A stretch of 64,000 nucleotides of DNA, taken from positions 11,834 through 75,833 of the forward strand of contig JAICWB010000001.1 of NCBI GenBank assembly GCA_025935035.1, in the 5' to 3' direction. The stretch comes from Terriglobales bacterium (GTDB taxonomy: Bacteria > Acidobacteriota > Terriglobia > Terriglobales > Acidobacteriaceae). Every line of letters begins with the position of its first letter. Within the stretch, counting starts at the first letter, position 1. The notes below the pieces were generated by a model. That model was not told the DNA's origin, ran no database searches, and saw only the letters and a list, made by a program, of their open reading frames with translations. Below are positions 47,913 through 64,000 of this stretch, in pieces. The position numbers were made by a program, and so were the translations under genes.

Positions 47913-50234
47913 GTGGGATTGAAAACGCCGGAACAAGAATCCAGCGCAGCGCTGTCTCGCGCGCAGGCTATTACCGAAATGGCGTTGGAGCTGGGCGTCT
48001 CACTCACCATCCCTGACCTATTGCAAGTCGTCTCACGCAGTTGTCTGAAGATGTTTCGACCGGCGGCGGTGCTCATCGCGCTGTCTCACAATCGTTCCCC
48101 GGAAGCGGTTCTGCTTGCCACCGGGCAGCAAGTTATCTCCGAACGCAAGTCTCTCGCCCGTTTTGATCAGGTGCTCGCGGATTTTCGCATCAAATCCACC
48201 GGCTCGATGGACTCCGTTGCCGCTAGTGACGTGTTAGGCCCTGATCTTATGCAGGGGCTTCAATGGTCAAAGTGCGCGATCGCCCGCATTGATGACAGCA
48301 ACGGACAACCGTTGGCCATGGTTTGCCTGGCGGACCCTGTCGAGGTTGACCAGGCGCTGTCGGCGGCGTTTTTGCGCCTCGTTTCTACGGCATTGGAGAA
48401 TTGCCGTCTTTTCTCGCAGATCACCCAGGCCAGCAAGCAGTGGGCTGAGATATTCGATTCGCTATCTGATTTCGTGGTTCTTCACGATGAGCAACACCGC
48501 GTGATGCGCGTGAATCGCGCGCTAGCTGATTTTATTGGCTCTCGGCCTCCGGAACTCATTGGCATTCATATGCGCGATTTACTGTCCAAAGGGAAAAATT
48601 CCGGCCTCCAGCCGTGCCCTTTCTGTTCGCAGAGCGCCCAAGGTGACGAATTTCGCCACCCTGCGTTGGACCGCTTTTATCTTTTGTCCACCTCGCGCGT
48701 GCGCGGCGCATTGAACGAAAGCTCGCAGACGATACACGTTCTCCGCGACATCACCGATCGTCGCGAAGCCGAGCGCCGCTATCAGCAATTATTTGACAAC
48801 GTACAGGAAGGTGTCTTTTTCTCCACTCCGGCAGGTCGTTTCCTCGAGGTCAATGACGCTCTTGTCACCATGCTTGGATATCGCAGCAAAAAGGAGTTGC
48901 TGGCCATTGATATTCCCACGCAGCTTTACTTGTCTGTCGATGACCGGATTCGCACTCAACACGCCATGGCGCCCACCGGGGAGCTGAAACAGAAAGAGAC
49001 TCACTTCCGCCGTAAGGACGGCTCGCTCATGCCGGCACTGGTCAACTCTTTCGCGGTTCGAAACACCGCCGGTGAAGTGGTGCAATATCGCGGCATGATC
49101 TTTGACATGAGCGAGATCAAGCGCTTCCAGACGCAATTGCAGCGCGAGCGCGATTTCAATCTGCAGATTCTTAACAATACGCAGAACATGATCCTCGTCG
49201 CCGACACTGCCGGCCTCGTCAGCTATGCGAATAGGCGTTGTTTCGTTCCGCAGGCTTACGGCAATACCGAGCTTGTCGGTCACAAGATCTCGAGCCTCGT
49301 CGAGCCTGCGGACCGTGAGTCATGGGATTGCGCCTTTGACATGGCGCTACAGGGCCAGCCGGTCGACAATCTGGAAGCGCAAATGATTCTCGGCGATGGC
49401 GCTGTTGGTCTCTTCTCCGTGAACCTGAGTCCCATGCGCGACCAAGCGGACCTGGTCACAAGCGTAGTCATCGTCATGACGGACATCACCGAGGCCGCCT
49501 TAATACAAGCGAAACTGATGAATACCGAAAAGCTCGCCGCAGTCGGCCAGTTGGTCTCGGGCGTAGCCCATGAAGTGAACAATCCCCTCACTGCCATCAT
49601 GGGCTTCGCTGACCTGATGCTTGAGAATCCAGAATTGCCGCAATTCGCGCACCAGGATCTGCAAGTCATCATGAAGGAAGCTGAGCGAACGAAGGAAATA
49701 GTTCAAAATCTTCTGAGCTTTGCCCGGCAGACTCCGCCACACCGTACCAACGTAGATGTGAACGCCGTTCTTCGCCGCACGCTCGCTTTGCGGGCATATG
49801 ACCTATCGAGTCATGGCGTCGAGATCGTCGAAGATTTCGCCAACGACCTGCCGCAAACTGTTGGCGATGAGCAGCAACTGGTTCAAGTGTTCCTGAACAT
49901 CCTCAACAACGCCTATGACGCGGTCATCGAGACAAGCAGCAAAGGCCGTATCCAGATCTCCACGTCACTCGCCGGCGCGAATGTTGTCGTCGAGTTCAAA
50001 GATAACGGGCCTGGGGTAAGTAATATCGAAAAGATATTTGATCCTTTCTTCACCACGAAACCTGTAGGCAAGGGAACTGGGCTTGGACTCAGCATCTGCT
50101 ACGGCGTGATCCGTCAGCACGGAGGCGAAGTGCATTGTCAAAACAATGCGAATGAAGCGGGCGCAACATTCATCATCAAACTGCCGATTCAGCCGAAGGC
50201 CGCCGCAGCCACTGTCGCGAGGGCCACGGCATGA
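47913..50234 (+). CDS. Cytoplasmic multi-sensor histidine kinase (GAF-like + PAS repeats + HisKA + HATPase)
   Basis: No TM segments. The N-terminal region is GAF-like and there are at least 2 PAS blocks (..RYQQLFDNVQEGVFF.., ..NLQILNNTQNMILVAD..). H-box SGVAHEVNNPLTAI. ATPase motifs NILNNAYDA, DNGPGV, GKGTGLGLS. The likely start is TTG at 47919, 5 nt after AAGGAG, rather than GTG at 47913. Confidence 0.85.
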   Translation: MGLKTPEQESSAALSRAQAITEMALELGVSLTIPDLLQVVSRSCLKMFRPAAVLIALSHNRSPEAVLLATGQQVISERKSLARFDQVLADFRIKSTGSMDSVAASDVLGPDLMQGLQWSKCAIARIDDSNGQPLAMVCLADPVEVDQALSAAFLRLVSTALENCRLFSQITQASKQWAEIFDSLSDFVVLHDEQHRVMRVNRALADFIGSRPPELIGIHMRDLLSKGKNSGLQPCPFCSQSAQGDEFRHPALDRFYLLSTSRVRGALNESSQTIHVLRDITDRREAERRYQQLFDNVQEGVFFSTPAGRFLEVNDALVTMLGYRSKKELLAIDIPTQLYLSVDDRIRTQHAMAPTGELKQKETHFRRKDGSLMPALVNSFAVRNTAGEVVQYRGMIFDMSEIKRFQTQLQRERDFNLQILNNTQNMILVADTAGLVSYANRRCFVPQAYGNTELVGHKISSLVEPADRESWDCAFDMALQGQPVDNLEAQMILGDGAVGLFSVNLSPMRDQADLVTSVVIVMTDITEAALIQAKLMNTEKLAAVGQLVSGVAHEVNNPLTAIMGFADLMLENPELPQFAHQDLQVIMKEAERTKEIVQNLLSFARQTPPHRTNVDVNAVLRRTLALRAYDLSSHGVEIVEDFANDLPQTVGDEQQLVQVFLNILNNAYDAVIETSSKGRIQISTSLAGANVVVEFKDNGPGVSNIEKIFDPFFTTKPVGKGTGLGLSICYGVIRQHGGEVHCQNNANEAGATFIIKLPIQPKAAAATVARATA

Positions 50235-50620
50235 GCGCCGGTCCCGCACTGCAGCAATATCCGCTGCTTGTCATTGAGGATGAAGCCTCTGTGCAAGCCT
50301 TCTTGCGGGCTGCGCTATCTCGCAACGGGTTTCAATTCGAGATCGTCGGTTCCGGCGCCGAGGGCCTCGAGCGGCTCAAGACAGGCCAGTACTGCGGGGT
50401 GCTTTCAGACATGCGCACTCCCGGCGGCGTCGATGGTGCTGATGTTCACTCCTGGCTGCGCGCAAACCAGCCCAGCCTCATTCCGCGCATGCTCTTCATC
50501 ACCGGTGACATTGTGAATGAGGAGACCCGACGTGTGCTTCAGACTACCGGTGTGCCCTGTATCGAAAAACCATTTCGCGTGAACGAATTGATCAACGCGA
50601 TCAGAAAAGTGTTGGGATAG
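50231..50620 (+). CDS. Single-domain response regulator (receiver only)
   Basis: REC with intact acidic pocket (VIEDE) and phospho-Asp (VLSDMRTPGGVDG), T (ITGD) and K (EKPF). The start overlaps the kinase stop (ATGA). Confidence 0.8.
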   Translation: MSAGPALQQYPLLVIEDEASVQAFLRAALSRNGFQFEIVGSGAEGLERLKTGQYCGVLSDMRTPGGVDGADVHSWLRANQPSLIPRMLFITGDIVNEETRRVLQTTGVPCIEKPFRVNELINAIRKVLG

Positions 50621-50623
50621 ACC

Positions 50624-52012
50624 ATGGATGACATCAAAAGCCGTTTCCTCATCGTCGACGACGACAAAAACATCCGCCGCCTCTGCATGACGGTCGGCTC
50701 ATCACTAGGCCTCATCGTTACTGAGGCTGAGAGCACCGAGTCCGCGCTTAACCAGATCGAACTTCATTCGCCCGACATCATCCTGGCCGATCTCATGATG
50801 CCGCAGATGACAGGACTTGAATTCCTCGAGCAAGTGAAAAAGCTGTTGCCGCACACCGAAGTCGCCATCATGACCGGCCACGGCAGCATAGAAACGGCCG
50901 TGCGCGCTATGCGCATGGGCGCTTACGACTTCATCACCAAGCCGTTCCGCATCGAGGAATTGAAACTGCTTCTCACGCGCATGGAAGAGAAAGTAAAACT
51001 GGTCGCCGAGAACCAATTCCTACGTGAACGAGTCACCACCGACACGAATTTAAACGGCGTCACCGGCTCCTCTCCCAAGATCCAGGATGTGTTGCGCATG
51101 GTCGCGCGCCTCAAAGACACGCGCACTCCGGTGCTGATCACCGGCGAGAGCGGCACAGGCAAAGAACTCGTAGCGCGCGCCATCCACTATCGCGGCACGC
51201 TAGCCAAGCGTCCATTCGTTGCCGTGGACTGTGGCTCGCTCGTCCCCACGTTGATCGAAAGTGAGCTGTTCGGGTATGAGAAAGGCGCGTTCACTGGCGC
51301 GCTGCGTGGAAAAGAAGGTCTCTTTCAAGCCGCCAACGGCGGCACCATTTTCTTAGACGAGATCGGCGAGCTTCCGCTGGAGATGCAGGCCAAGCTCTTG
51401 CGCGTCCTGCAGGAAAAAGAAGTGCGCCCCGTCGGCAGCAACGAGCGAGTGAAGATTGACGTCCGCGTCATAGCCGCCACTAATCGCGATCTGGAGCAAG
51501 CCTACAAAGACGGAACCTTCCGCAAGGATCTCTTCTTCCGCCTCAACGTAGTTTCCATTCACACGCCGCCACTTCGTGAACGCAAGTCGGATATTCCATC
51601 CCTCGTGCAATGGTTCCTTGAGAAGAGTGCGCCTCAACGTGTAGTCCACGTTTCCACCCAAGCCATGAAGCTGATGCTCGACTACGACTGGCCAGGCAAC
51701 GTCCGTGAACTCGAAAATTGCGTCGAACGCGCGGTGGCGCTCGGTGCAGACAGCGTTCTAGACGTCGCCGATCTCACTCCCGCCATCCGTGCGGGACAGC
51801 CCGGCGTTCCCCAGATCGCGCTCGCCACAGCGAATACAACTTCGTCTGACCTCGAAGAACTCGAGCGGGAAACCATCCAACGCGTCTTCGATCAAGTCGG
51901 TGGGGACAAGACCGCTGCCGGAAAAATTCTGGGTATCAGCCGTGCCACGCTTTACCGCAAGTTGAAGCGTTACAACATCACCCAAGCCAAAGCCATGACA
52001 GCAACTGCCTAA
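50624..52012 (+). CDS. Sigma-54-dependent response regulator (NtrC family)
   Basis: REC (IVDDD.. ILADLMMPQMTG), Walker A GESGTGKE, GAFTGA (YEKGAFTGA), and a C-terminal Fis-type HTH (AAGKILGISRATLYRKLK). It starts 3 nt after the receiver gene. Confidence 0.9.
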   Translation: MDDIKSRFLIVDDDKNIRRLCMTVGSSLGLIVTEAESTESALNQIELHSPDIILADLMMPQMTGLEFLEQVKKLLPHTEVAIMTGHGSIETAVRAMRMGAYDFITKPFRIEELKLLLTRMEEKVKLVAENQFLRERVTTDTNLNGVTGSSPKIQDVLRMVARLKDTRTPVLITGESGTGKELVARAIHYRGTLAKRPFVAVDCGSLVPTLIESELFGYEKGAFTGALRGKEGLFQAANGGTIFLDEIGELPLEMQAKLLRVLQEKEVRPVGSNERVKIDVRVIAATNRDLEQAYKDGTFRKDLFFRLNVVSIHTPPLRERKSDIPSLVQWFLEKSAPQRVVHVSTQAMKLMLDYDWPGNVRELENCVERAVALGADSVLDVADLTPAIRAGQPGVPQIALATANTTSSDLEELERETIQRVFDQVGGDKTAAGKILGISRATLYRKLKRYNITQAKAMTATA

Positions 52013-52107
52013 GCCGCAAGGCTGAGACAGCCGTCTCATAGTGAGAAACGAGACGCTGCTCAAGCAATCACGGCCAGTAAAATCAGCAACTTACCGCTCA
52101 AAATATT

Positions 52108-52123
52108 TGGCTTATCGCTTGCA
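52108..52123 (+). promoter_or_regulatory. Sigma-54 (-24/-12) promoter
   Basis: TGGCTTATCGCTTGCA has GG (52109-10) and GC (52121-22) separated by exactly 10 nt. It matches 9 of the 11 specified positions of TGGCAC-N5-TTGCW. It lies 96 nt after the activator gene stop and 46 or 67 nt before the in-frame ATGs at 52170 and 52191. Confidence 0.6.
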
Positions 52124-52190
52124 TATCAACCTTCGGGGACATCTGCGCGCGTTCATCCGCCGAGATGTCATGCTGAAAAGAAAAGAGACT

Positions 52191-53657
52191 ATGAGCACAG
52201 CGACCGTCAATCTGACTGAAGTAGCTGCAATGTGGCGCAATGCGCGCCGCCTTTACCCGATCTATTCCGCGCTGAACCAGCAATCTGGTTACGGACTGCA
52301 GCCCTGCCGCGATCTCGAAAGCCCCATCGACCGGTCCGATCCGGAAGTCGTTGAACGCGTCAAAGATTGGCTGAAACAGGTCGACACCCGCATTGAAGTG
52401 CATCAGATCCGGCAGCTTTTACAGACCACTCACATTGCCACTGAAGATGGTTTGCGCGCTTTGTTGACTCGCGAATTGCGCAAGGAGCCAAAGGACAACA
52501 CCGTCCGCGACAAAGTCGACTACATGCTCGTGCAGTATTACGCCTTTTGCTCTCCGGACGACGCGCACGCCTCCACCATCGACTTCACCCATGTCTCTCA
52601 AGTTCTGCGGCCCGTCTTGGGCGAAGTCTCACGCGTGGTGCCGGAGTTCTGCAGCGAACTCGACAACATTCTGACCCAGCTCGACCATTGCGCCTCTCTC
52701 GGTGACTTACTCAACAAGAAGATCATTGACAAAGCCCGCGCCATGAAAGACCAGGCGGGCGCCGAATATTTCAAAGCATCGGTCCTTGTCGCTTACGCGC
52801 GATTCAATTTTCTTATGCGTCGTGGATTCTTCCGCCTCATGCACGCCGACCTGCATGCCATCCGCTTCGCACTTCATGCGATGGAAGGCCGCGGACAGCA
52901 CTCATGCGATTGCACCGCCGTCGGCCTTTCAGCCGACCAGAACTTCGCTGAACTGCGCGAGATCTGTCACGACTGGAAAAAGCCATTTCGCGCCGCCTAT
53001 TCGCTCGGCAATACCTTTGAGCAGTTGGTAAAGATTCGCGCGGCGGTTGAAACAGCAATGGCGAAGCCATTGCCGTCGCCAAAACCCATTGCTCCAATTG
53101 CACCGGTGGCAGCCGCAGCCGCGCCAGCCCCTCAAGTGGCAAAACCGGCGCCAGTCACTACTCCCGCGCCCGCCAAACCCGCAGCCCAGCCTTCCGCTCC
53201 ATTTGCTGTAGCGCCGCAGACGGTCAAAACCGCCGCTCCAGTCGCAAACGTGGGAAGCAATTCCGCGGTGGACGAATGCATCTCGCAGATTCATATCGCC
53301 GTCTCCACGATTCCGGTCAAGAACGCGGCGATGTGTTCTTTCGCTCTAAAAGGAACGAAGCTCATATTGGCCTCATGGGAAGTAGTTGCGTTCCAGAAGC
53401 CGAATAGCCCCGCAGCCATTCCGGTACAGCAAGCAGTCGCTTCGCGCGTGCTTCTGATTCAAGCAGTGGAAGCGCGCAAGCGCGGCGAAGCGGTCGATGT
53501 TCGCGCAGCTATCGCGCAAGCCCATAGCCAGGCCGCGCATCTCCAGGCTGAGATCGCCACTGCTAAAGATCGCAAAGACATTGATACCGCGGTCAACTTA
53601 TCGGCAACCGCCAAACGACTGCTCGCCTTGGTCGAGCAGGCAGAAAAGGGCAAATAG
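52191..53657 (+). CDS. Hypothetical protein, no recognisable domain (N-domain, Ala/Pro-rich linker, C-domain)
   Basis: Long ORF with coding-like composition. I chose ATG 52191 (or 52170) because the sigma-54 promoter lies inside the 5' extension of the track ORF. The A/P-rich linker is encoded at about 53070-53230. The C-terminus is helical. Confidence 0.65.
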   Translation: MSTATVNLTEVAAMWRNARRLYPIYSALNQQSGYGLQPCRDLESPIDRSDPEVVERVKDWLKQVDTRIEVHQIRQLLQTTHIATEDGLRALLTRELRKEPKDNTVRDKVDYMLVQYYAFCSPDDAHASTIDFTHVSQVLRPVLGEVSRVVPEFCSELDNILTQLDHCASLGDLLNKKIIDKARAMKDQAGAEYFKASVLVAYARFNFLMRRGFFRLMHADLHAIRFALHAMEGRGQHSCDCTAVGLSADQNFAELREICHDWKKPFRAAYSLGNTFEQLVKIRAAVETAMAKPLPSPKPIAPIAPVAAAAAPAPQVAKPAPVTTPAPAKPAAQPSAPFAVAPQTVKTAAPVANVGSNSAVDECISQIHIAVSTIPVKNAAMCSFALKGTKLILASWEVVAFQKPNSPAAIPVQQAVASRVLLIQAVEARKRGEAVDVRAAIAQAHSQAAHLQAEIATAKDRKDIDTAVNLSATAKRLLALVEQAEKGK

Positions 53658-53661
53658 ACTC

Positions 53662-54435
53662 ATGTTCTCTGACGACAGGTTCATGCAAGACCGCGTAGTG
53701 CTGGTGCTAGCGCAGTCGCCTGCCTTTGCTCAAGCTTTAGTCGCTCGTTGGCAGAACATTTCATCCGCGCCGGCATTCACCGTCATCACCTCAGCGGATG
53801 CCACTTCTCACAACGGCAGCCAGTACAAAGCCTGCCATATGGTCATCGTCGAAGCAGCCGCTATCCACTCGCATCGAAATCTATTGCAACGCCTCGACGC
53901 GGTCGGCACGCCGGTCATCTGCGCATTGCCCATCGCGGCTTCTCGTAACGCTCGTTCGAACTCGCACGGCCCGGAACCGATCGTTTTCTCGCCGACGGCC
54001 GACCAACTCCGCGCAGATTTTCCGCGCATGATCACGCTCAACCTCATCGACCGCGAGTCCGGCCTCGACACGTTAGTCACTCTCGCGATCGAAGTCCTGA
54101 AACGTATCGACGCTGTGCTTCGCGCCAAGAAGGCAGAATCCGACGCCGGCTCGCAATCCGCTCAACTCGCGCTGGGTAAATACGTTGCCGAATCGATGCA
54201 CGGTTTCAACAATGCGCTTACCGCCGTGCTCGGCAATGCCGAACTATTAATGTTGGAAACCTCAAGCCTTACGCCTCAGATGCAGGAAGAGATTGAGGCC
54301 ATTCATTCCAACGCCATTCGCCTGCACGAGATGATGCAACGCTTCTCGTCATTGGAAGCCGAGATCGAGGCCGGACGCAAACATGGTAAGAGTGCCGCTG
54401 CGGGAGGCACTCAGGCTTACCTTTCAGGTACCTAA
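53662..54435 (+). CDS. HisKA (DHp)-only protein with a degenerate receiver-like N-domain; candidate histidine phosphotransferase
   Basis: 257 aa from ATG 53662, which is 4 nt after the upstream stop. C-terminal H-box LGKYVAESMHGFNNALTAVLGNAELLMLE, with the His codon at 54199-54201. A second DHp helix follows, then only about 20 more residues, so no HATPase domain. The N-terminal ~150 aa have an alternating beta/alpha pattern (VVLVLAQSP.., HMVIVEAAA.., TPVICALP). Confidence 0.65.
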   Translation: MFSDDRFMQDRVVLVLAQSPAFAQALVARWQNISSAPAFTVITSADATSHNGSQYKACHMVIVEAAAIHSHRNLLQRLDAVGTPVICALPIAASRNARSNSHGPEPIVFSPTADQLRADFPRMITLNLIDRESGLDTLVTLAIEVLKRIDAVLRAKKAESDAGSQSAQLALGKYVAESMHGFNNALTAVLGNAELLMLETSSLTPQMQEEIEAIHSNAIRLHEMMQRFSSLEAEIEAGRKHGKSAAAGGTQAYLSGT

Positions 54436-54457
54436 GCTGTTCTCAGCAGAAGATTTA

Positions 54458-54486
54458 CAACTGCCAAGTGCTAGGCTTGGCAGTTG
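54458..54486 (+). other. Perfect 11-bp inverted repeat / hairpin
   Basis: CAACTGCCAAG (54458-68) and CTTGGCAGTTG (54476-86) with a 7-nt loop and no following T-run. It lies between the DHp-only gene and the PilH-like gene. Confidence 0.5.
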
Positions 54487-54506
54487 CGGAAAGTAGCAAT
54501 GGGTTC

Positions 54507-54866
54507 ATGAAAAAGATTCTTATCTGTGACGATTCGATAGCTGAGGTCAAACTCATGCAGTCCGTGCTTGAGAAAGCCGGATACTGCCCGGTCGTGACCC
54601 ACGATTCCACGCGCATCGAGCAGATGATCGACGTACAGCGGCCCAACCTCATCCTCTTGGATGTCGTCATGCCGCAACGCAATGGATTTCAAGTCTGCCG
54701 TGACCTTAAAGGACATGCAGAATACAGCCGCATCCCGGTCGTGGTGGTCAGTTCCAAAGACCAGGAGAGCGACAAGTTTTGGGCAAAGCAACAAGGCGCG
54801 GACGGCTACGTGGTAAAGCCCTTTACGCCAGAACAATTGTTGGGCGCGATAAAAGTTTTGGTTTGA
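54507..54866 (+). CDS. PilH-like single-domain CheY-family response regulator
   Basis: 120 aa from the internal ATG (MKKILICDDS). Intact REC residues (DD, LLDVVMP, VVSS, VKPF). The block SSKDQESDKFWAKQQGADGYVVKPF resembles the PilH/PixH-type signature as I recall it (TKDQETDKVWGKRQGARDYLTKP). Confidence 0.8.
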   Translation: MKKILICDDSIAEVKLMQSVLEKAGYCPVVTHDSTRIEQMIDVQRPNLILLDVVMPQRNGFQVCRDLKGHAEYSRIPVVVVSSKDQESDKFWAKQQGADGYVVKPFTPEQLLGAIKVLV

Positions 54867-54993: not shown

Positions 54994-55536
54994 ATGGATT
55001 ACACAGCAGAGCAGGCAAAATTAACGGCGAAACTGGCGGAAGCCGCACAATCCGCCACAGGAGCGGCCGAACTCGGCGTTCCCGCTGAAGATCGTGCCGC
55101 GGAGATCCAGTACTGCATCTTCCGCGCCGGGCGCGAACGCTTCTGCCTGCCTGTTCTTGACGTGGAAGAGGTAGTCGAATGGCCCAGCGTCACTGACCTC
55201 CCGCTCTCGCCCAGCTTCCTGATGGGGATCTTCAATCTGCGCGGCAGCATTGTCCCCGTGATCGACATCGCGTTCACTGAAGGACGCCGCGCCGATCTTC
55301 CGCCTAAGCATTGCGTTGTGGCCATCAGAAAAGGTGCGGAAGCTGGCGAGTTCCTTCGGCTCGGGATCGCCGCAGACGAGGTCATCGGTACCTATAACAC
55401 TAGTGAACCTTTGCTGGTGGATGAAGCTCCGGCAGACGTACCGCATTGTTGCGGCATGCTGCGTCACGATGACCGCTTGGCATTGGCTTTGAGTTTGAAA
55501 CGGTTGACGGAATCTTTTCCCGTGCCGGTGATTTAG
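54994..55536 (+). CDS. cheW: CheW-family coupling protein (PilI-like position)
   Basis: CheW domain ([53 protein letters not shown]) preceded by a ~35-aa Ala-rich extension. Confidence 0.85.
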
Positions 55537-55565
55537 ATTTTTCGGTTTTGTCTTGGAGGCTGTAT

Positions 55566-56996
55566 ATGAAGGGTCGGTTGAGTTCGACCATTTGGATGTT
55601 AGTCACGTTCAACGCGATAGCGCTTTTCGGCGTGATCGTGTTGGCGTATATCGCGGGCGAGAAATCGCGTTTGCCGATCGCCAATGCTCTGCAGAGTGAC
55701 GGTGCCACGTTCTTTTTGTCGGCCGTCGTCGCGGGCCTCGCCATGGCTTTCATTGTTCTCTTTGTCCTTGGCAACCGCGTGATCAAGCCAGTGAAGGAAC
55801 TCACTGACTTCTCTGAGAAGCTCGCGGCCGGTGACTACAAGGCCAAGGCAGACGTCGATTCGCAAGACGACTTCGCCCTCATCGCGGAGAACTTCAACTC
55901 CAGCAGTGAGCGCGTCTCTCGTGCCGTCACCAACCAGGAAGCGCAGGAGTCGCTGCAGAAGAGCGTCACTGAGTTCTTGACCATCGTCAGCCAGATCGCC
56001 CGCGGCGATTTGACGTTGCGCGGCAATGTGACCAATGACGCGCTCGGCAACGTAGTCGATTCCGTCAACTACATGCTTGATAACTTCACGCGCGTGCTCG
56101 AACGTGTTCGCAAGAGCGCCATTGACGTCGCCTCCAACGCCAATGAGATCTTGCTCTCGTCTGAAGACATGTCCGCCGGCGCTTCGCAACAGGACCAGGA
56201 GATCACCAATACCTCGTCCGCCGTAGAAGAGCTCACCGTCTCCATGAAGCAAGTCTCGAACAACGCGGAAGCTTCGGCGGAAGCCGCACGCCGCGCACTC
56301 GATGCCGCAGAATCCGGCAACCGCGCCGTGCGTGACACCCTCGAAGGTATGCAACGCATTCGCGCCTCCGTGCAAGCCACCGCAAAGAAGATCAAGTCAC
56401 TCGGCGATCGTTCGCTGGAGATCAGCGAGATCATCAATGTTATTAATGACATCACTGAACAGACCAACCTGCTCGCGCTCAACGCCGCCATCGAAGCAGC
56501 GCGCGCCGGTGAAGCGGGCCGCGGTTTCGCCGTCGTTGCCGACGAAGTCCGCAAGCTGGCAGAACACTCCCGCACCGCTACCAAAGACATTGCTGCACTG
56601 ATCAAAGCCATCCAGGCCGAAACGAACGAAGCCGTTGTCGTGATGGAAGAGGGGACTAAGGAAGTGGAAGTCGGCGCCAAACTGGCAGACCAGGCCGGTA
56701 AAGCGTTGGAAGCTATCTCCAGCGTCGTCCGTCAATCCGCCGAACTTGTACAGGAGATATCACTCGCCTCGAAACAACAGGTGCGCGGTACTGAAGGCGT
56801 AGCTAATGCTATGCAGATCATCTCCAACATCACGCGGCAGACTTCACAGGGGACTCGTCAGACGGCCCGCACCGTGGAACACATGGTGAAGTTATCTGAG
56901 CAGTTGAATGAAGCGCTGTCGCAATTCCGCATCGCTTCATCCGGTCCGACAGAGATCCGTTCGGCCGCCGAAGTAGCTGCCGCGGGTCGCAGATAG
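55566..56996 (+). CDS. Methyl-accepting chemotaxis protein with minimal periplasmic loop (PilJ-like position)
   Basis: Two TM helices are separated by only about 20 residues ([19 protein letters not shown]), followed by HAMP. Invariant hairpin [39 protein letters not shown]. The start ATG at 55566 lies 6 nt after GGAGG; the track start is TTG at 55548. Confidence 0.9.
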
Positions 56997-57061: not shown

Positions 57062-57943
57062 GTGCTAAAGGCTACAAATTCCGACGCCACGCTGAGTGAT
57101 CACGAGCTCTCAGAGATGCGCTCGCTTTTAGAGCAGCGCTCCGGGATCCTCTTTGACACTTCGCGTGAACGCTTCTTTTCAGCACGCGTGCGGGAGCACA
57201 TGCGCGAGAAGAAGCTCGCCCACGGCGCCGAATTGCTGCGTCTCGTGCGGGGCTCGAATGTCGAATATGACCGGCTGTTAGAGCGCCTCCTGACGCAGGA
57301 GACTTCGTTCAACCGCTATCCCGCCATTTTCTCTGCGCTGGAAAAGCGCGTGCTCCCGGAAATGCACACCAAGAAATTCTGGGAAGACCCGCGCTCGCTT
57401 CGCATCTGGAGTGCCGGCTGCGCCTCTGGTGAAGAGCCTTACACCATCGCCATCAGCGTGGCGGACGCGTTCGAACAAGCCGAGACATGGAACGTACAGA
57501 TACTCGCCACCGACATAAGTCGCCAGGCGCTCGACGTAGCCGAGAAGGGCGTGTACCCCCGCCGGGAATTAGAAACATTAAAGCCCCACCAATTCAACAA
57601 CTACTTCACCCAGCAGGGCGAACACACCTTTAAGGTGAAACCGAAGATTCGCAACATGGTCACCTTCGCGCCATTGAACTTGGCGCAGGCCGTGTACATG
57701 GGCAAGTTTGACTGCATCTTCTGCATGAACGTGATGATCTATTTCACTGAGGAGCGTCGCGCAGCGTTGATCCAGCGTTTCTTCGATTACCTCGAGCCCG
57801 GCGGATACCTATTTCTCGGCCACGCGGAATCGGTCGCCAAAGCCGGGGTCGGCTTCGAACCCATCGTCGTCGGCGATTCGTTGATCTACCAGAAACCAAT
57901 GACCGCGGCCAAACGTGCCGCCGTAACACAGGAGCGTCTGTGA
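57062..57943 (+). CDS. cheR: Chemotaxis methyltransferase CheR (PilK-like position)
   Basis: N-terminal helical domain (LSDHELSEMRSLLEQRSGILFD) and SAM motif IWSAGCASGEEPYTIA. GTG start. Confidence 0.85.
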   Translation: MLKATNSDATLSDHELSEMRSLLEQRSGILFDTSRERFFSARVREHMREKKLAHGAELLRLVRGSNVEYDRLLERLLTQETSFNRYPAIFSALEKRVLPEMHTKKFWEDPRSLRIWSAGCASGEEPYTIAISVADAFEQAETWNVQILATDISRQALDVAEKGVYPRRELETLKPHQFNNYFTQQGEHTFKVKPKIRNMVTFAPLNLAQAVYMGKFDCIFCMNVMIYFTEERRAALIQRFFDYLEPGGYLFLGHAESVAKAGVGFEPIVVGDSLIYQKPMTAAKRAAVTQERL

Positions 57944-60900
57944 GCGCGCCCGGACAAGAATTCGTCGAAGTATTTCTGACCGAAGCGTCAGAGCACCTGC
58001 AGTTCCTGCGGGAATACTCAGGCATTCTCCTGGATCCGTATCCCGTCCCAGAAGATGTGGAGCGTCTCTACATAGCCGCACACACGCTCTCGGGAACCTC
58101 TGCCTCGTATCAGTTCCCACTGTTCTCTGAAGTCGCAAGTAAACTGGCACACATCTTCCAGTACGCCATGAACGCCACCGTCGGCGCCGATGCAGCCGGC
58201 CCTCTGGTCGAGTTCATCTCGGAAGCAATCGCTGTCCTCGAGTCGGACCTGATCATGGTCAGCACCAACGCCATCGAGTCAGAAGAGGACATCAACAACT
58301 TCAAGGCGAAGTATCCCTTCGCATTCCAGGCACCGGCGCCGCCGCCGTTGGTTGAAGAGCCGCATTACGTGCATGAAGCCGAGGGCGACGTGCTCGAAGC
58401 TCACGCAACTCCACAAGCTGCGCCCGTCGCTGCTCCTGCGCCTGAGATTCACATCGCGCCGCTCGACCCCGACCCGGAAATCCCCGCCGAGATCCTCGAA
58501 TTCTTCGTACCCGAGGCCGAAGAGCATCTCCAGATCATCCAAGACTGCTTGCTCTCGCTTGAAACCCACGCCAACGCGGAAGACATCAATCGTCTCTTCC
58601 GCGCCATGCATACGGTGAAGGGAAGCGCGGCGCAAGTCGGATTGCAGCGCATAGCCCGCGTCGCACATCGCGCCGAAGATCTTGTCGGACGCTTGCGCGA
58701 CGGCCTGCTTCATCCCAGCGCCGAGATCGTAGACATCTGCCTCGAATCGGTCGATTGCCTCAAGCGCTTCCTCTACAACCAGTGGAGCGACGAAATCACG
58801 CTGCAATCGTCAGTCAAATCTCTGCTCACGCGGATCGCGCGCCTCGCTCCGGAAGAAGCTGATGGCGAAGCCGCACCGGCAGAACAGGTTGAAGTTGCCT
58901 CGCAAACCATCCACGAACGGGCCGTCGCGCAAGCCGCAGCACCCATCGCCGAGGTCCTTCATGAAGAAGTCCAGGCTGCACCCGCACCAGAGCATGCCGC
59001 CGAAACTGAACACAAAGAAGAAGATGAACTAGTAGCCGGACTCACCTCCGCCAAGCGTGACATCACCGCTGTAGCGCAATCGAAATCTGTCCGCATTGGC
59101 CTAGAACGCCTAGACCGCATGATGAACGCCGTCGGCGAGTTAGTCATCAACCGCACGCGTATGCTTGGCCGTGTTGCCGAACTTGAGCGCCTGGCGGACG
59201 TGCTCAACTTCTCCAAAGGTCGCATGGCGGACAAGGTCACCGAGTTCCAGGAGAAGTACGAATTCAGCCGCCTCACCTCGCAGCCGCAGATGCCGCAGTA
59301 CCCGGCGCAATATCTCGGGGGCGGTGAATATCCATTCCGCGGCGGCTACTCCAGCTACTCCGGCGGATACGATCCCTCACTCGCCGAATTCAGCGAACTT
59401 GAGATGGACCGGTATGACGATTTCAGCATCCTCTCGCGTTCATTGACTGAGATCTCGGCCGACATCACCGAAGTCCTCACGCAGCTAGACGGCTTCGTCC
59501 GCCGCGTTGATTCTGACATCGACGAGTTCACCAAACTCGCGCACCGCCTGCAAGACGAGATCACCCAGGCACGCATGGTGCCCATCGGCAATTTGTACGC
59601 CCGCCTGTCCCGTACCGTCCGCGACGCCGCTAAAGCCGCCAACAAGCGAGTAGAACTAGCGCTATCGGGCGCTGACACCGAACTCGACAACAACATCATC
59701 CAACAGATCTCCGATCCGCTGATTCACCTCGTCCGCAACGCCGTGGCACACGGCCTCGAACGCACAGATGAGCGGTACCACGCAGGCAAAGGCGACCACG
59801 GCAATGTCGCTGTCCGCGCCTACCATCGCGGCAACCACATATATATAGAGGTAGAAGACGACGGTCGCGGTATCGACTACGCGAAAGTCCGCGCCACCGC
59901 CGTTGAAGCCGGCCTCGTAAGCTTCGAAGACGCGGCAGCACTCGGCGAGCGCGATCTGCTCGAGTTCTTGTTCCATCCCGGCTTCTCCACCGCACCTCGC
60001 AAGACCGAACTCGCCGGACGCGGTGTAGGCCTTGACGTAGTCCGCGCCAACTTAAAATCGCTCAACGGCGAGATCGACATCGAAACCTCGAAGGGCCACG
60101 GCACGCGCTTTACTCTGAAGGTGCCGCTCACCCTAATCATCTCGCAAGCGCTCTTCGTGCGGTGCGGCAAACAGACCTTCGCACTCCCGCTCGCCTTCAT
60201 CGAAGAGATTCGCCGCTTAAACGCCAACGACATCGAAGAAGTCGGCGGCAAGCTGCTTACAAAAGTCCGCGATGTAGTCACCGAAGTCGTTCGTCTCGAC
60301 GATCATCTCGGCCTCGCAAAGGTCGAGCCCGTCAACGGCTACTACCGTATGGTCATCGCCAATGTCGGTCAGCGCCAGGTCGGCATCATCGTCGAAGAAG
60401 TCCTGCGCAAAGACGAAATAGTCATCAAGAGCCTCGGCGAATACCTGCGCAACGTGAAGATGTTCCCCGGTTCCACCATCGCGCCAGACGGCAGCCTCAT
60501 CCTGCTCATCGACATCAATCGCCTCATCGCCGGCGAACAAGTCGAACGTCGTCCGCTGGCCATGGCCAACATCGCGAAGGCCGCGCGCCTCTTCGCCCCG
60601 GGCGCAGCCGCAGTCGCCGCCGGACACATCCCCGAAGCCGCCATCGACGAAGTCGGCCCGGAAAAAGTCGTGGTCCTCGCAGACGACTCCATCTCCGTCC
60701 GCAAATTTGTAGGACGCATGCTGGAAAAAGCCGGCTATCGCGTGAAACTCGCCTCAGACGGCCTGGAAGCCTTAGAGATCGCCACCGCCATGAAAGTCGA
60801 TCTAGTGGTCACAGATCTCGAGATGCCGCGCACCAACGGATACGAACTCATCGCGCACCTGAAACAAAACACGCAAACACGCAATCTGCCGGTCATGGTC

Positions 60901-61068
60901 GTCACATCACGCGCAGGCGCAAAACACAAAGACCGTGCATTGAAAGAAGGCGCATCGGCATTCATGACCAAGCCGGTGCAGGACGAACAATTTGTAGCCG
61001 CCGTGGCCGCATTGATCGGCCCGGCAATGGGAGCGTCGCTGGCACATCACGCCACGACCACACACTAG
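57940..61068 (+). CDS. cheA: Hybrid CheA-type histidine kinase with two Hpt domains and a C-terminal receiver (ChpA-like)
   Basis: Hpt1 reads AAHTLSGTSAS (His codon 58081-83). Hpt2 reads AMHTVKGSAAQ (His codon 58609-11). N box HLVRNAVAHGLE, G1 DDGRGID, G2 GRGVGLDVV, then a CheW-like domain. The C-terminal REC has intact DD and phospho-Asp (VLADDS ... LVVTDLEMPRTNG). It overlaps cheR by 4 nt. Confidence 0.9.
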   Translation: MSAPGQEFVEVFLTEASEHLQFLREYSGILLDPYPVPEDVERLYIAAHTLSGTSASYQFPLFSEVASKLAHIFQYAMNATVGADAAGPLVEFISEAIAVLESDLIMVSTNAIESEEDINNFKAKYPFAFQAPAPPPLVEEPHYVHEAEGDVLEAHATPQAAPVAAPAPEIHIAPLDPDPEIPAEILEFFVPEAEEHLQIIQDCLLSLETHANAEDINRLFRAMHTVKGSAAQVGLQRIARVAHRAEDLVGRLRDGLLHPSAEIVDICLESVDCLKRFLYNQWSDEITLQSSVKSLLTRIARLAPEEADGEAAPAEQVEVASQTIHERAVAQAAAPIAEVLHEEVQAAPAPEHAAETEHKEEDELVAGLTSAKRDITAVAQSKSVRIGLERLDRMMNAVGELVINRTRMLGRVAELERLADVLNFSKGRMADKVTEFQEKYEFSRLTSQPQMPQYPAQYLGGGEYPFRGGYSSYSGGYDPSLAEFSELEMDRYDDFSILSRSLTEISADITEVLTQLDGFVRRVDSDIDEFTKLAHRLQDEITQARMVPIGNLYARLSRTVRDAAKAANKRVELALSGADTELDNNIIQQISDPLIHLVRNAVAHGLERTDERYHAGKGDHGNVAVRAYHRGNHIYIEVEDDGRGIDYAKVRATAVEAGLVSFEDAAALGERDLLEFLFHPGFSTAPRKTELAGRGVGLDVVRANLKSLNGEIDIETSKGHGTRFTLKVPLTLIISQALFVRCGKQTFALPLAFIEEIRRLNANDIEEVGGKLLTKVRDVVTEVVRLDDHLGLAKVEPVNGYYRMVIANVGQRQVGIIVEEVLRKDEIVIKSLGEYLRNVKMFPGSTIAPDGSLILLIDINRLIAGEQVERRPLAMANIAKAARLFAPGAAAVAAGHIPEAAIDEVGPEKVVVLADDSISVRKFVGRMLEKAGYRVKLASDGLEALEIATAMKVDLVVTDLEMPRTNGYELIAHLKQNTQTRNLPVMVVTSRAGAKHKDRALKEGASAFMTKPVQDEQFVAAVAALIGPAMGASLAHHATTTH

Positions 61069-61080
61069 GACTTCGGAACG

Positions 61081-62274
61081 ATGGAAGCAGGGAAGAGAAT
61101 TCGGGTTTTAGTCGCAGACGACTCGGCGTTCATGCGCAAGGTTTTAGTAAGCATCTTAAGCGCAGATCCGCAATTTGAAGTCGCCGGCGAAGCGCGCGAT
61201 GGCCGCGATGCCGTCGCCCAGTCCGAAGCCCTGTCTCCAGACGTCATCACCATGGACATCAACATGCCTCACATGGACGGCCTCCAGGCCACCGAAGTGA
61301 TCATGTCCACCAAACCCAAACCCATCGTGATCGTCAGCTCGGAATCGCGCGATGGCGCAGACATCACTCTGAAAGCCCTCGAGCTCGGTGCGATCGACTT
61401 CGTCGCCAAGCCATCCAGCGGTGTTGATCTCGACATGAACACCATTCGCGAAGAGTTGGTTCGCAAGTTGCGCATGGCCTCGAAGGTCCGAGTTGTCCGC
61501 ACAGCGTCACGTTCGAAGCTCGCGCAAGAGATCGCCACCTCCGCCCCTCGCACCGAGCCCGCGCTCCCTTCTGGATACGCCATCAATGCGGCCAACAATG
61601 GTTCAGGCATTCAAGCGCCCGCCCTCAGAAAGATCTCCAGCGTCTTCAATGATGCCACTTCGCTGAAACGTGGCGACGGCAAATTCCCCATCGTGGTCAT
61701 CGCTGCTTCCACCGGCGGTCCAGCTACATTGATGAAGCTGATTCCAAGTTTCCCCAAAGAATTTCCCGGCGCTGTTCTACTCGTGCAGCACATGCCCGCT
61801 AGCTTCACATCGCAGTTCGCGCAACAGCTGGCAGACATCGCCGCTATAAAAGTAAAAGAGGCGTCACCCGGTGAGATCATCTCGCCCGGCAACCTTTATC
61901 TATGCCCCGGTTCGTCGCACATGAAGGTCACCGCCACCGGACGCCTCACGCTCGACGAAGGTGCGCGCATCAACGGCTATCGTCCCTGCGCCGACGTCAC
62001 CCTCACCACCGCCGCCGAATTCATAGGCAGCCTCGGCATCGGCGTGATCCTTACCGGCATGGGTAATGACGGGTGCCAGGGCGCGCAAGCCATGAAAGCT
62101 GCCGGCGCACACGTCATCGCGCAGGACGAAGCCACCTCCATCATCTTCGGCATGAACGCTGAAGCCATCAAGACCGGCGCAGTGGATCAGATCTTGCCGC
62201 TCGACTCTATCTATCAATCGATCGAGAAGCGCATGCTCTACGTCTGCGGCGCAGCGCGGGTAGGTGCATCATGA
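61081..62274 (+). CDS. cheB: Protein-glutamate methylesterase CheB (ChpB-like position)
   Basis: REC (VLVADDS.. VITMDINMPHMDG), a ~70-aa linker, then the methylesterase domain (AASTGGP, VQHMPASFT, TGMGNDGC). Confidence 0.9.
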   Translation: MEAGKRIRVLVADDSAFMRKVLVSILSADPQFEVAGEARDGRDAVAQSEALSPDVITMDINMPHMDGLQATEVIMSTKPKPIVIVSSESRDGADITLKALELGAIDFVAKPSSGVDLDMNTIREELVRKLRMASKVRVVRTASRSKLAQEIATSAPRTEPALPSGYAINAANNGSGIQAPALRKISSVFNDATSLKRGDGKFPIVVIAASTGGPATLMKLIPSFPKEFPGAVLLVQHMPASFTSQFAQQLADIAAIKVKEASPGEIISPGNLYLCPGSSHMKVTATGRLTLDEGARINGYRPCADVTLTTAAEFIGSLGIGVILTGMGNDGCQGAQAMKAAGAHVIAQDEATSIIFGMNAEAIKTGAVDQILPLDSIYQSIEKRMLYVCGAARVGAS

Positions 62275-62777
62275 ACCTCCGCCAACGCACAGTCGCAAAG
62301 AAACAGCATTCGGAAGACGTCATCCTCTTTGATGTCGGCGAGATGCGTTTCGCCATCGCCGCTCGCGATGTGGACGAGATCCGCAATATGGAGAGCATGA
62401 CCGCACGCCACTTCGGCACGGACCCGTGCATCGCGAAAGTGAAGTCAACGATCTCGCGCACCAAAGGTTCCGCCGAGCAAACGTTTTACGTGGTGAACTC
62501 CGCGCTACACTATCGCCTAGCTCAAGCCGCGCCGACTCGGTTACTCATCCTGCGCGATCATCCCGTCGCTCTCCTCGCAGACTCCATCGATCGCATGATG
62601 CAAGTCAGCACTGTTCTCGCGGTCCCGCAAGCTTTTCAAGGCGCAGAACGCAAATGGTATCGCGGCCTCGCGGTCATGAACGGCAAAGTAATACCCATGG
62701 TCGATCCCGCGTCGTTCCTCGGTCGCGAAGAACTCGACCTTCTTGCCGGCACAAGAGTTCAGGCGGTGACGGCATGA
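62271..62777 (+). CDS. Divergent CheW-like protein (ChpC-like position)
   Basis: CheW-like topology (VILFDVGEMRFAIAARDVDEIRNM ... LLILRDHPVALLADSIDRMMQV ... GLAVMNGKVIPMVDPASF). It overlaps cheB by 4 nt. Confidence 0.7.
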   Translation: MNLRQRTVAKKQHSEDVILFDVGEMRFAIAARDVDEIRNMESMTARHFGTDPCIAKVKSTISRTKGSAEQTFYVVNSALHYRLAQAAPTRLLILRDHPVALLADSIDRMMQVSTVLAVPQAFQGAERKWYRGLAVMNGKVIPMVDPASFLGREELDLLAGTRVQAVTA

Positions 62778-63193
62778 GTACTGACAGCCGCTTTGTCCTG
62801 TTCCCGCTAGGCAACAAACGCTTCGCTTTGCCTGCCGCTCAAGTCACCGAACTCGCGCAGCCAGACGTCTTGCAAAAATTCCCGCACACCACCAAGCTGT
62901 TAGCCGGTGTGCTCCTTCGCCGCGGGCGCATCATTCCCGTCCTCGACGTAGCTGAAGTCCTAATTGGCCCGGACGCCCCCGCTCGCAAGTTCTATCTCAT
63001 CGCTACCAGAAAGTTCGATCACATGGAAGAATGGACCGCCGTGCCCGTGACCGGCGAATGCGAATTGAAAAAGTGGGACATGATTCCGCCCATGCCCTCA
63101 CTGCCCAAACATGTCATTGGCATCCTTTCGCTGCCAGAAGAGACCATTGAAGTGATTGATCTCAATCAACTAGCAATGACGGCGGTCGCTTAA
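62774..63193 (+). CDS. Second divergent CheW-like protein
   Basis: 139 aa from ATG 62774, with an ATGA overlap on the previous stop. Sequence: FVLFPLGNKRFALPAAQVTELAQ ... LAGVLLRRGRIIPVLDVAEVL ... VIGILSLPEETIEVIDLNQL. Confidence 0.7.
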   Translation: MSTDSRFVLFPLGNKRFALPAAQVTELAQPDVLQKFPHTTKLLAGVLLRRGRIIPVLDVAEVLIGPDAPARKFYLIATRKFDHMEEWTAVPVTGECELKKWDMIPPMPSLPKHVIGILSLPEETIEVIDLNQLAMTAVA

Positions 63194-63984
63194 TGTCGAA
63201 TATCTCCGCCAATCCGCGCCTGTTGTTGATTGATAGCAACGTCTTCTTCGCCAAGCGCCTCACTGACGCGCTCACAGCCATCGGCTTCGACGTCTCCCAC
63301 AACACGCAATCCGCCTTCGCACTCACATCGCTCGAATGGGACACGCCCGTAGCCATCATCTGCTCCACGCAACTTCGCGAGATGGGAGCGTTTGAGCTTC
63401 CCAAGATTCTTAACGCTGATGCCAAGACCGCGCATATCCCCGTCATAGCCATGGGCGACGGCGGCGACCAGGCGCTGATGGAAGCTTTCCGCGCCGGTTG
63501 CGACGACTATATCGATCGCCGTCTCGGCCCCGAACACATCGCCACCCATGTGCGCACTTTTCTAAAGAGTCACACCGAAGGCTTCCAGCCCACGCAGATG
63601 CTCACCAACTCTGAGACTGCGTTGAGCGGCAATCTCTCACACCTCGATCTGCCCGGCGTCGTGCAGATGCTATGTCACTCCCGCCAGTCCGGCGCGCTCC
63701 ACATCAACGCGCGCGAGATCGACGGCGTGATCTTCTTTGAAGCCGGTGACATCACCCATGCCGAAGCCGGCGAGCAGATCGGTGACGACGCGTTCACCAC
63801 CATCGTGAAGCGCTGCAATGGCATAGGAAATGGCATCTACAAATTCATTCCCGGGGCAGAAACCCCCACGCGCACTGTCTTGCGATCAGCAACCGATCTC
63901 ATGCTCGATGCGTTGCGTCAGCTCGATGAAGAGAATGACGGCGGTGGGGAAGAAGAAGGATTCGCAACAGGAGGGGCATCGTGA
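63193..63984 (+). CDS. Degenerate receiver + DUF4388/PATAN-like domain protein
   Basis: The N-terminal REC fold lacks the phospho-acceptor Asp: VAIICSTQLREMG where DxxMP is expected (C57-S58, codons 63361-66). The conserved T is G and the conserved K is R. The C-terminal block LSGNLSHLDLPGVVQMLCHSRQSGALHINAREIDGVIFFEAGDITHAEAGEQIGDDAF fits the DUF4388 pattern as I recall it. The start overlaps the previous stop (TAATG). Confidence 0.7.
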   Translation: MSNISANPRLLLIDSNVFFAKRLTDALTAIGFDVSHNTQSAFALTSLEWDTPVAIICSTQLREMGAFELPKILNADAKTAHIPVIAMGDGGDQALMEAFRAGCDDYIDRRLGPEHIATHVRTFLKSHTEGFQPTQMLTNSETALSGNLSHLDLPGVVQMLCHSRQSGALHINAREIDGVIFFEAGDITHAEAGEQIGDDAFTTIVKRCNGIGNGIYKFIPGAETPTRTVLRSATDLMLDALRQLDEENDGGGEEEGFATGGAS

Positions 63985-64000
63985 GCTCCACGCCTACGAT
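63981..64000 (+). CDS. Possible start of a further co-oriented gene (runs off the window)
   Basis: GTG at 63981 overlaps the TGA stop (GTGA) and is preceded by AGGAGG (63969-74) at 6-nt spacing. Only 6 codons are visible. Confidence 0.25.

Follow-up and report, generated by a model that had tools for sequence, protein, structure and literature searches.

Introduction

In Pseudomonas, the genes of the Pil-Chp chemosensory system are arranged in the order pilH-I-J-K-chpA-B-C. Here we describe a gene cluster with a similarly ordered core that begins at position 47913 of a 64,000-nt stretch of DNA from a Terriglobales bacterium (Acidobacteriota, contig JAICWB010000001.1). The full stretch is referred to as the window, and all features are given in its coordinates. 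Every gene from 47913 to the window edge is on the plus strand. The cluster encodes a two-component system (A, B and C), a chemosensory core (H through CheB), a protein with no recognizable domain (U), a kinase-like protein that lacks an ATPase domain (D), two CheW-like proteins (X and Y) and two proteins that may carry the output (Z and Q). The cluster is real, it is conserved in soil Acidobacteria of the class Terriglobia, and its genes are strongly linked. On balance, the evidence tips toward a Terriglobia-specific chemosensory pathway, of the type IV pilus (Tfp) or alternative cellular function (ACF) type, with a two-component system of its own that controls its expression via sigma-54. 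No paper describing the cluster was found in a literature search.

The cluster shares with the Pil-Chp system of Pseudomonas aeruginosa (pilG-H-I-J-K-chpA-B-C) the order of genes for a receiver (REC), CheW, a methyl-accepting chemotaxis protein (MCP), CheR, CheA, CheB and an extra CheW-like protein. Also shared are a hybrid, multi-Hpt CheA that carries REC at its C-terminus, and an MCP hairpin of an estimated 40 or so heptads. It differs from Pil-Chp in that its CheA has just two Hpt domains, its MCP lacks the PilJ domain, and neither a PilG-type second single-domain receiver upstream nor linked pil genes are present. Further, it has a promoter for sigma-54 and an enhancer-binding protein (EBP), as well as U, D, Z and Q. 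The initial annotation of the window described the core as Pil-Chp-like, which is appropriate for the gene order and the CheA architecture and inappropriate for the MCP, which is not PilJ-type, and for linkage to pilus genes.

Multi-Hpt CheAs belong to the ACF or Tfp class in 93% of cases and most have a C-terminal receiver; extended dimerization regions have been reported for those of the Tfp class (PMC10782961). In Synechocystis, PATAN is an output domain that binds PilB1/PilC, and in cyanobacteria, outputs that combine PATAN with a receiver are standard in the chemosensory systems for type IV pili (bioRxiv 10.1101/2021.06.11.447907). In the Tax/Pix systems with PatA-type regulators (Synechocystis PixG/PixE), as in the cluster described here, a PATAN and receiver protein is encoded beside a hybrid CheA. 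The domain order is reversed in Z (REC is N-terminal and PATAN C-terminal), and a photoreceptor MCP is lacking from the cluster.

In Myxococcus xanthus, a histidine kinase (CrdS) and an NtrC-family activator (CrdA) are co-regulated with the che genes and act with the Che3 system, and CheA3 is a phosphatase on CrdA~P (PMC3147164). The association of a kinase and NtrC-type activator with che genes is thus known, in contrast to what was first proposed for the cluster. Che3 lacks CheY and CrdA is its output, whereas the cluster has canonical receivers and is not of the Che3 type. The upstream activating sequences (UAS) and sigma-54 promoters that precede its che genes point to an activator that controls expression of the pathway itself. 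The Frz system of Myxococcus also differs, as the domain set of its CheA is not that of the cluster CheA.

Conservation in Terriglobia

We collected loci using U as the query in a scan of one genome per species, which yielded 80 loci, and scored gene order by phmmer searches of the window proteins against all open reading frames (ORFs) of these loci. Nearly all are from Terriglobia metagenome-assembled genomes (Ca. Angelobacter, Korobacter and unclassified Terriglobales). Three loci that carry the cluster or U (L014, L023 and L061) were binned as Actinomycetota, Limnocylindrales and Saccharimonadales; these contigs most likely belong to Terriglobia and were placed in the wrong bins.

On every contig of sufficient length, the gene order is A, B, C, U, (D), H, CheW, MCP, CheR, CheA, CheB, (X, Y), Z. 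Two long contigs (L081 and L083) show that Z is followed by Q and then by the end of the operon; uvrB is encoded on the opposite strand beyond Q, immediately in L081 and after three more genes in L083. If the genes for U, D and Z had been scattered in other genomes, the idea of a single system would have been weakened. Instead, an identical arrangement of che and two-component genes surrounds them across the 80 loci.

Linkage of these three proteins to the che genes was thus correctly proposed, but the three do not always occur together. Of 71 loci, 42 have D; we consider it truly absent from the other 29 because, with one exception, their U-H gap is just 114-413 bp. Variants that lack U and consist of activator, promoter, D, H, CheW and so on (L107, L164, L171, L190, L117 and L161) were recovered from metagenomes with a DNA-pattern search. 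D begins about 41 nt downstream of the UAS and sigma-54 promoter in most of these variants. Three natural configurations therefore exist: U with D, U alone and D alone. The two additional CheW-like proteins, X and Y, are present in the window as originally described, but the pair is jointly missing from about 10 of the 40 loci that reach Z.

Sequence conservation follows a similar division. Based on the 22 complete loci, median identities to the window proteins are high for MCP (77%), CheW (74%), H (73%), C (72%), CheA (70%) and Z (64%), and lower for X (44%), U (37%) and D (35%). We conclude that the invariant system comprises A-B-C, the promoter, H through CheB, Z and Q, and that U, D, X and Y are fast-evolving accessories, each of which is dispensable in some lineages.

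It could be argued that unrelated units, namely a two-component system, two hypothetical genes and a che operon, have come to lie next to each other by chance, given that most relatives have at least two promoters (P_U upstream of U and P_H upstream of H) and that U, D, X and Y are individually dispensable. This is very improbable. The order is kept in 80 loci although the identity of U drops to 30-35%, P_U and P_H share UAS half-sites, and the variants without U retain the activator, the UAS and promoter, D and the che layout. Conservation of both the neighborhood and the cis-elements leads us to exclude chance.

Predicted sigma-54 control

The promoter upstream of U (P_U, TTGGCTTATCGCTTGC) was originally described as near-consensus. 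It has the correct GG-N10-GC spacing and two mismatches to TGGCAC-N5-TTGCW, and the sigma-54 motif alone occurs at chance level in the window (38 matches, 37 expected). It is conservation, rather than the motif, that makes the -24/-12 element credible: TTGG-N8-[TG]TGC is found in 57 of 65 C-U intergenic regions versus 74 of 1580 control windows (4.7%).

Additional elements surround this promoter in the related loci. At least two GAGAC/GTCTC pentamers are present upstream of P_U in 56 of 57 loci, compared with 44 of 750 controls, and the mean number per 160 nt upstream of P_U and P_H is 2.9-3.0 versus 0.33 in controls. Those of P_U form TGAGAC-N4-6-GTCTCA inverted repeats located 70-110 nt from the -24 element. 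A motif resembling the binding site of integration host factor (IHF), WATCA[AG]N4TTR, occurs at a fixed position, -30 from TTGG, in 44 of 57 loci and in only 14 of 1500 control windows. The window carries all three elements, UAS, IHF-like site and promoter, at 52023-52122 beside the EBP gene, and its UAS repeat is one of just two TGAGA-N-TCTCA inverted repeats in the 64 kb. The conserved architecture upholds the proposal that transcription is gated by sigma-54.

A scan of metagenome contigs for the DNA grammar alone returned 121 matches, 33 of which have an NtrC-family gene that ends within 400 nt upstream on the same strand. Of these 33, 25 are paralogues in unrelated contexts. Adjacency to EBP genes in independent contexts is the expected look of an enhancer-binding-protein site, and the pattern suggests a wider activator subfamily that shares the TGAGAC/GTCTCA recognition site. 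Additional regulon members such as pilus genes were not found by this metagenome DNA-pattern scan. In L086, L133, L151, L156, L176, L191 and others among L084-L203, TGAGAC-N-GTCTCA, a spacer and TTGGC-N7-TTGC occur directly downstream of paralogous NtrC-family genes. The genes behind these sites are unrelated ones; as judged by eye from translations, they include a recurrent 163-aa fasciclin-like protein, as well as a small-heat-shock-like protein and a dihydrolipoamide-dehydrogenase-like protein.

A second promoter, P_H (TTGGCTGCGCAATTGC), is located just upstream of H in 48 of 69 relatives. Its TGAGAC/GTCTCA repeats lie 110-140 nt further upstream, with at least two in 49 of 49 loci. In loci L009-L080 (e.g., L035 and L059), the UAS of P_H falls inside the last ~20 codons of D (consensus ...EK.SQDET..SH), so this sequence doubles as coding and regulatory DNA. 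The same UAS is retained as non-coding DNA in genomes that lack D. The window and its closest relatives (L001-L007 and L011) do not have the P_H UAS and keep only a degenerate form of the promoter.

The cluster was first viewed as a single gated island. Most relatives have at least two predicted sigma-54 units rather than one. From the arrangement of these sequence elements, U (with D) and the che genes appear in most genomes to be two co-regulated sigma-54 units. For the window, the simplest assumption is that transcripts from P_U read through into the che operon.

The same promoters bear on the role of C. By analogy to Che3 and CrdS-CrdA, C could be mainly an output of the che pathway and not its gate, with CheA, perhaps via D, setting the phosphorylation of C, which would control genes elsewhere. 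In favor of this, besides the Myxococcus precedent, the kinase-receiver-activator module always adjoins the che genes; also, the dimerization and histidine phosphotransfer (DHp) hairpin of D is of the same subtype as that of A and could contact the partners of A. We consider this scheme unlikely as the main role of C, since the conserved UAS and sigma-54 promoters directly before U and the che genes imply that the activator controls at least the cluster, and since the canonical CheY-like receivers H and Q are present, unlike in Che3. The two schemes are compatible as a feedback loop.

Gene content of the cluster

Pfam searches of the consecutive ORFs, all on the plus strand, agree with the gene map of the initial annotation, and the overlaps of stop and start codons at 50231, 57940, 62271, 62774, 63193 and 63981 are real (Table 1). 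That annotation also called for a further gene after Z, and Q of the relatives matches the last six codons of the window.

Table 1. Coordinates of genes and of predicted regulatory elements in the cluster.
Feature	Position	Strand	Basis and remarks
A, cytoplasmic sensor histidine kinase	47913..50234	+	Pfam: three PAS, HisKA, HATPase; H-box HEVNN
B, single-domain REC	50231..50620	+	Pfam; 4-nt overlap with the stop of A
C, NtrC-type sigma-54 enhancer-binding protein	50624..52012	+	Pfam: REC, Sigma54_activat 236 bits (AAA+), HTH_8
UAS (predicted)	52023..52054	.	TGAGAC-N4-GTCTCA inverted repeat (52023-52038) plus TGAGAA and GAGAC half-sites
IHF-like site AATCAGCAACTTA	52081..52093	+	between UAS and promoter
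P_U, sigma-54 -24/-12 promoter (predicted) TTGGCTTATCGCTTGC	52107..52122	+	motif and conservation
U, 488-aa cytoplasmic protein	52191..53657	+	no Pfam, NCBIfam or PDB match
D, pseudo-receiver and DHp hairpin, without ATPase domain	53662..54435	+	Pfam: HisKA only, 27 bits
Degenerate counterpart of P_H TAGGCTTGGCAGTTGC, without upstream UAS	54472..54487	+	comparison with relatives
H, CheY-like single-domain receiver	54507..54866 (ORF from 54468)	+	Pfam: REC
CheW	54994..55536	+	Pfam
MCP	55548..56996	+	Pfam: HAMP, MCPsignal
CheR methyltransferase	57062..57943	+	Pfam
Hybrid CheA	57940..61068	+	Pfam: two Hpt, H-kinase_dim, HATPase, CheW, REC
CheB (REC and methylesterase)	61081..62274	+	Pfam
X, divergent CheW-like protein	62271..62777	+	Pfam: CheW 38 bits
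Y, CheW-like protein	62774..63193	+	Pfam: CheW 62 bits
Z, pseudo-receiver and C-terminal PATAN/DUF4388	63193..63984	+	Pfam: weak REC, DUF4388
Q, start of last gene (VSSTPT...), cut by window edge	63981..64000	+	orthologue match

No transmembrane segment was identified in kinase A. Its first 185 aa have no family match in Pfam, and the GAF domain originally assigned to it is not detectable by Pfam. The single-domain receivers B and H are canonical as judged from their active sites. The equivalents of E12, D13, D57, T87 and K109 of B are kept in 59-60 of 61 orthologues, and D12, D13, D57, S87 and K109 of H are kept in 83-88 of 88 sequences. The start codon of H is probably the ATG at 54507 (MKKILICDD), and the orthologue is called as a protein of 119 aa in L081 and L083. 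PDB and NCBIfam rankings for H are generic, with no indication of PilH or PilG affinity. The designation of H as PilH-like reflected its position only.

The 127-nt gap between H and CheW (54867-54993) contains GC-rich hairpins, GGCACGGC-TTCA-GCCGTGCC at 54927-54946 and GGGGC-TTTA-GCCCC at 54965-54978. The gap has a folding z-score of -2.2, lacks a T-run and has no Rfam match; the hairpins may be a processing or stoichiometry element. An Rfam scan of 47400-64000 detected no RNA families. Scans for sigma-70 promoters and terminators gave results at chance level, and no convincing terminator was identified between genes of the cluster.

Chemosensory core and predicted outputs

The MCP has two transmembrane segments, an outer loop of ~17 aa and HAMP (probably two). 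With a loop of this length, we infer that the protein has no periplasmic sensor. Its signaling hairpin is ~40 heptads long, as estimated from the tip (E322) and the arm length. The CheA has multiple Hpt domains, a C-terminal receiver and no P2, the combination expected for the Tfp class. About 150 aa separate its H-kinase_dim (381-438) and HATPase (592-731) domains and constitute an extended dimerization region. NCBIfam matches to this CheA are generic only.

Z has a receiver (11-120) followed by DUF4388 (145-247), as predicted by Pfam. The match to PF14332 scores 65-67 bits (cut-off 25) and covers profile positions 1-121/122, and thus identifies a PATAN domain. In 45 orthologues, the position equivalent to D57 is occupied by S in 33, by A in 6 and by H in 2, but never by D. 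Thus, the receiver lacks its phospho-acceptor, as first proposed, and, as a further difference from Tax/Pix, phosphorylation cannot be the direct switch; without the acceptor Asp, Z must be controlled by protein contacts. Z is not a PatA-type regulator, as PATAN is not N-terminal and the receiver is not phosphorylatable on the usual Asp. The initial annotation considered the REC-PATAN protein to be foreign to chemosensory systems. Proteins combining PATAN and a receiver are well known, and it is the reversed order and the missing Asp that are unusual. We found 2912 homologues of Z. The best PDB sequence match is to a part of PleD that starts at PleD residue 154, past the N-terminal receiver of PleD. 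There is also a weak match to FrzS of Myxococcus (E 0.001), and the receiver of Z is non-phosphorylatable, like that of FrzS.

In Q orthologues (243-268 aa), a canonical receiver is joined by a Pro/Ala linker to a C-terminal coiled coil, and the Pfam match is to REC only. This resembles RomR in outline, with a receiver, a Pro/Ala linker and a short C-terminal helical domain. RomR homologues have been reported in Acidobacteria (PMC3441718, PMC4546325). The Q C-terminus has no Trp, whereas the Trp of RomR-C is invariant (PMC3441718).

Our best guess, by analogy to the cyanobacterial proteins, is that the output target is a type IV pilus motor. The gene order from REC through CheW, MCP, CheR, CheA and CheB to CheW is that of pilH-I-J-K-chpA-B-C, the experimental ties of PATAN have so far been to pilus motors, and extended CheA dimerization regions are reported for the Tfp class. 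The cluster could also encode an ACF-type system with an output other than pili (exopolysaccharide or biofilm, cell envelope, development), in which PATAN of Z and the coiled coil of Q would contact another partner. This fits with the lack of linked pil genes and of a PilJ domain in the MCP, and with the lack of special similarity of H to PilG or PilH. Further, the ACF class also includes multi-Hpt hybrid CheAs (PMC10782961), and PATAN proteins stay membrane-localized without PilB/PilC, so other partners exist (bioRxiv 10.1101/2021.06.11.447907). Given the gene order, the PATAN ties and the CheA dimerization region, we think a non-pilus output is improbable, if worth keeping in mind.

The uncharacterized protein U

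U was originally reported to have no recognizable domain, and we identified none by sequence or by fold. The protein has no Pfam or NCBIfam match, and separate searches of its domains in Pfam at E<=5 gave noise only. A profile search of PDB returned no matches at E<=10, and Foldseek comparison of the U model to PDB gave a best E of 0.76 with template modeling (TM) scores below 0.2. The AlphaFold model itself is confident, with a predicted local distance difference test (pLDDT) value of 85. It comprises an all-alpha N domain (~1-295) and a C domain (~357-487) formed by a hairpin and three long helices, connected by a disordered Pro/Ala linker whose length varies. U is cytoplasmic.

At least 352 homologues were identified, all of them unnamed or hypothetical proteins and from Acidobacteriota wherever the organism is named. 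A profile search of 1.84 billion representatives returned 815 clusters (50% identity), of which 310 had E values lower than 1e-30. In the 80-locus scan, U is confined to Terriglobia-type contigs.

Within the C domain, Asp465 is invariant and Asn469 nearly so, and the two (53583-53597) are separated by one helical turn. These residues are in the motif NIDAAVNL on a long helix and recall the D-x3-Q catalytic pair of CheZ, a motif resemblance without a match to the CheZ fold or sequence. The possibility that U is FimL-like or Hpt-like was rejected, as hhalign comparison to the Hpt region of CheA gave a probability of 0.3%.

Most likely, U is a co-induced cytoplasmic adaptor or scaffold for the sensor-less array. 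A more ambitious suggestion, which we offer tentatively, is that U (and D, if present) is a new chemosensory accessory module, found only in Terriglobia and with an undescribed fold, that feeds input to the sensor-less MCP or acts on receiver phosphorylation, and that D is a kinase-less DHp phosphatase that closes a sigma-54/che feedback loop.

The pseudo-receiver and DHp protein D

The initial annotation correctly described the HisKA part of D as lacking an ATPase domain, but overlooked an N-terminal pseudo-receiver fold. The model of D (pLDDT 78) shows a five-stranded receiver-like domain followed by a long helical hairpin. Foldseek identified the REC-DHp protein LvrB (8vc9) as the best match, at E 1e-4 and with low TM-scores (0.26-0.35). 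The hairpin and the DHp of kinase A share 35% identity, and the receiver-like domain of D has no phospho-acceptor. The protein ends 77 aa past His180. Of 252 homologues, the best 120 are 162-258 aa in length and none is listed with HATPase_c.

D is not a HisKA kinase, as it has the H-box His but no catalytic ATP-binding (CA) domain. His180 and Asn184 (H+4) are invariant in the alignment, and H+1 is usually Gly. As in Spo0B, ChpT and LvrB, a DHp hairpin and conserved His occur without a working ATPase. Spo0B and ChpT retain a degenerate CA domain, whereas D has no CA-like domain at all and carries a receiver-like domain without an acceptor. In HisKA proteins, an acid at H+1 is needed for kinase activity, and Thr or Asn at H+4 for phosphatase activity (PMC3510030). 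The best reading of these motifs is that D may be a dedicated phosphatase or phosphotransfer protein.

Proposed pathway

Based on gene linkage, A would phosphorylate C, and B may be a phosphate sink or modulator. C~P would bind TGAGAC-N4-6-GTCTCA ~70-110 bp upstream of the -24 element, within the conserved DNA architecture, and bending by an IHF-type protein would help it to open P_U. In the window, P_U most likely transcribes U, D and the whole che operon by read-through; in most relatives, P_H, with the same repeats, would drive the che genes separately. The signaling array would consist of the sensor-less MCP, CheW, the two-Hpt hybrid CheA and, optionally, X and Y, with adaptation by CheR and CheB, as suggested by their domain content. 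CheA may pass phosphate to H, CheB and Q as well as to the receiver domain that it carries itself. Output would be via Z and Q, with the PATAN domain of Z docking on a PilB/PilC-type motor in the manner of the cyanobacterial PatA-type regulators. D, which would be induced by C, may provide feedback on a receiver of the system; it has kept the His and the H+4 Asn and has lost the H+1 acid and the ATPase. U would be a fast-evolving accessory of the cytoplasm that is co-induced with the pathway and most likely serves as an adaptor or scaffold.

Several observations weigh against this scheme. No pilus genes were found among the window ORFs checked or downstream in L081 and L083, and the MCP lacks a PilJ-type periplasmic domain, as indicated by Pfam and by the ~17-aa loop. 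U, D, X and Y are each missing in some lineages. U has no detectable homology or fold match, and its role is a guess. Finally, P_H of the window is degenerate and without a UAS, and che transcription from P_U is assumed here.

Adjacent che cluster and other genes of the window

A second complete che cluster, which was absent from the initial annotation, is encoded directly upstream on the minus strand (39938-47463) and is divergent from the first. It includes genes for MCP, CheW, CheR, CheA, CheB, CheY (40438-40875) and CheX. The MCP has a periplasmic domain of ~145 aa and ~44 heptads, and the CheA is classical, with one Hpt and no receiver. Most related loci retain the MCP-CheW-CheR-CheA genes next to the island; identification of CheB, CheY and CheX is limited to the window.

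Between the two che clusters lies the window's only other TGAGA-N-TCTCA inverted repeat (47776-47790). A minus-strand sigma-54-like sequence, TTGGCAACTACCGTGC (47668-47653), precedes the divergent MCP gene by ~190 nt. Control of this second cluster by sigma-54 was considered but finds no general support, as the repeat occurs in only 3 of 43 loci and a loose form of the sigma-54-like motif in only 7 of 43.

The large ORFs checked elsewhere in the window are mostly housekeeping genes (SecA, ArgRS, MetRS, M16 peptidases, Ku and FabH), and no flagellar or pilus gene is among them. The initial annotation listed no type IV pilus genes in the window, in agreement with their absence from the ORFs submitted to Pfam. 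Also present is an unrelated sensor kinase (sCache_3_2, PAS, HisKA and HATPase) at 1827-3740 on the minus strand. Several TGAGAC hexamers are clustered near this kinase, at 3619-4134.

Conclusions

The cluster contains an uncharacterized family, U, and a defined cis-regulatory code; the gain is a wiring variant and not a new principle. Terriglobia rank with the most abundant bacteria in soil, yet to our knowledge their behavior has hardly been studied. An anonymous stretch of their DNA can now be described as a defined and testable regulon, with a predicted TGAGAC-N4-6-GTCTCA site and one or two sigma-54 promoters, that encodes a complete signaling pathway with a likely pilus-directed output. 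Family U is flagged for studies of structure and function, as it comprises hundreds of clusters, has a confident model with no fold match and is found only at the head of this pathway. The variants of the cluster (U with D, U only, D only, with or without X and Y) constitute a natural comparative experiment on the roles of the accessory proteins.

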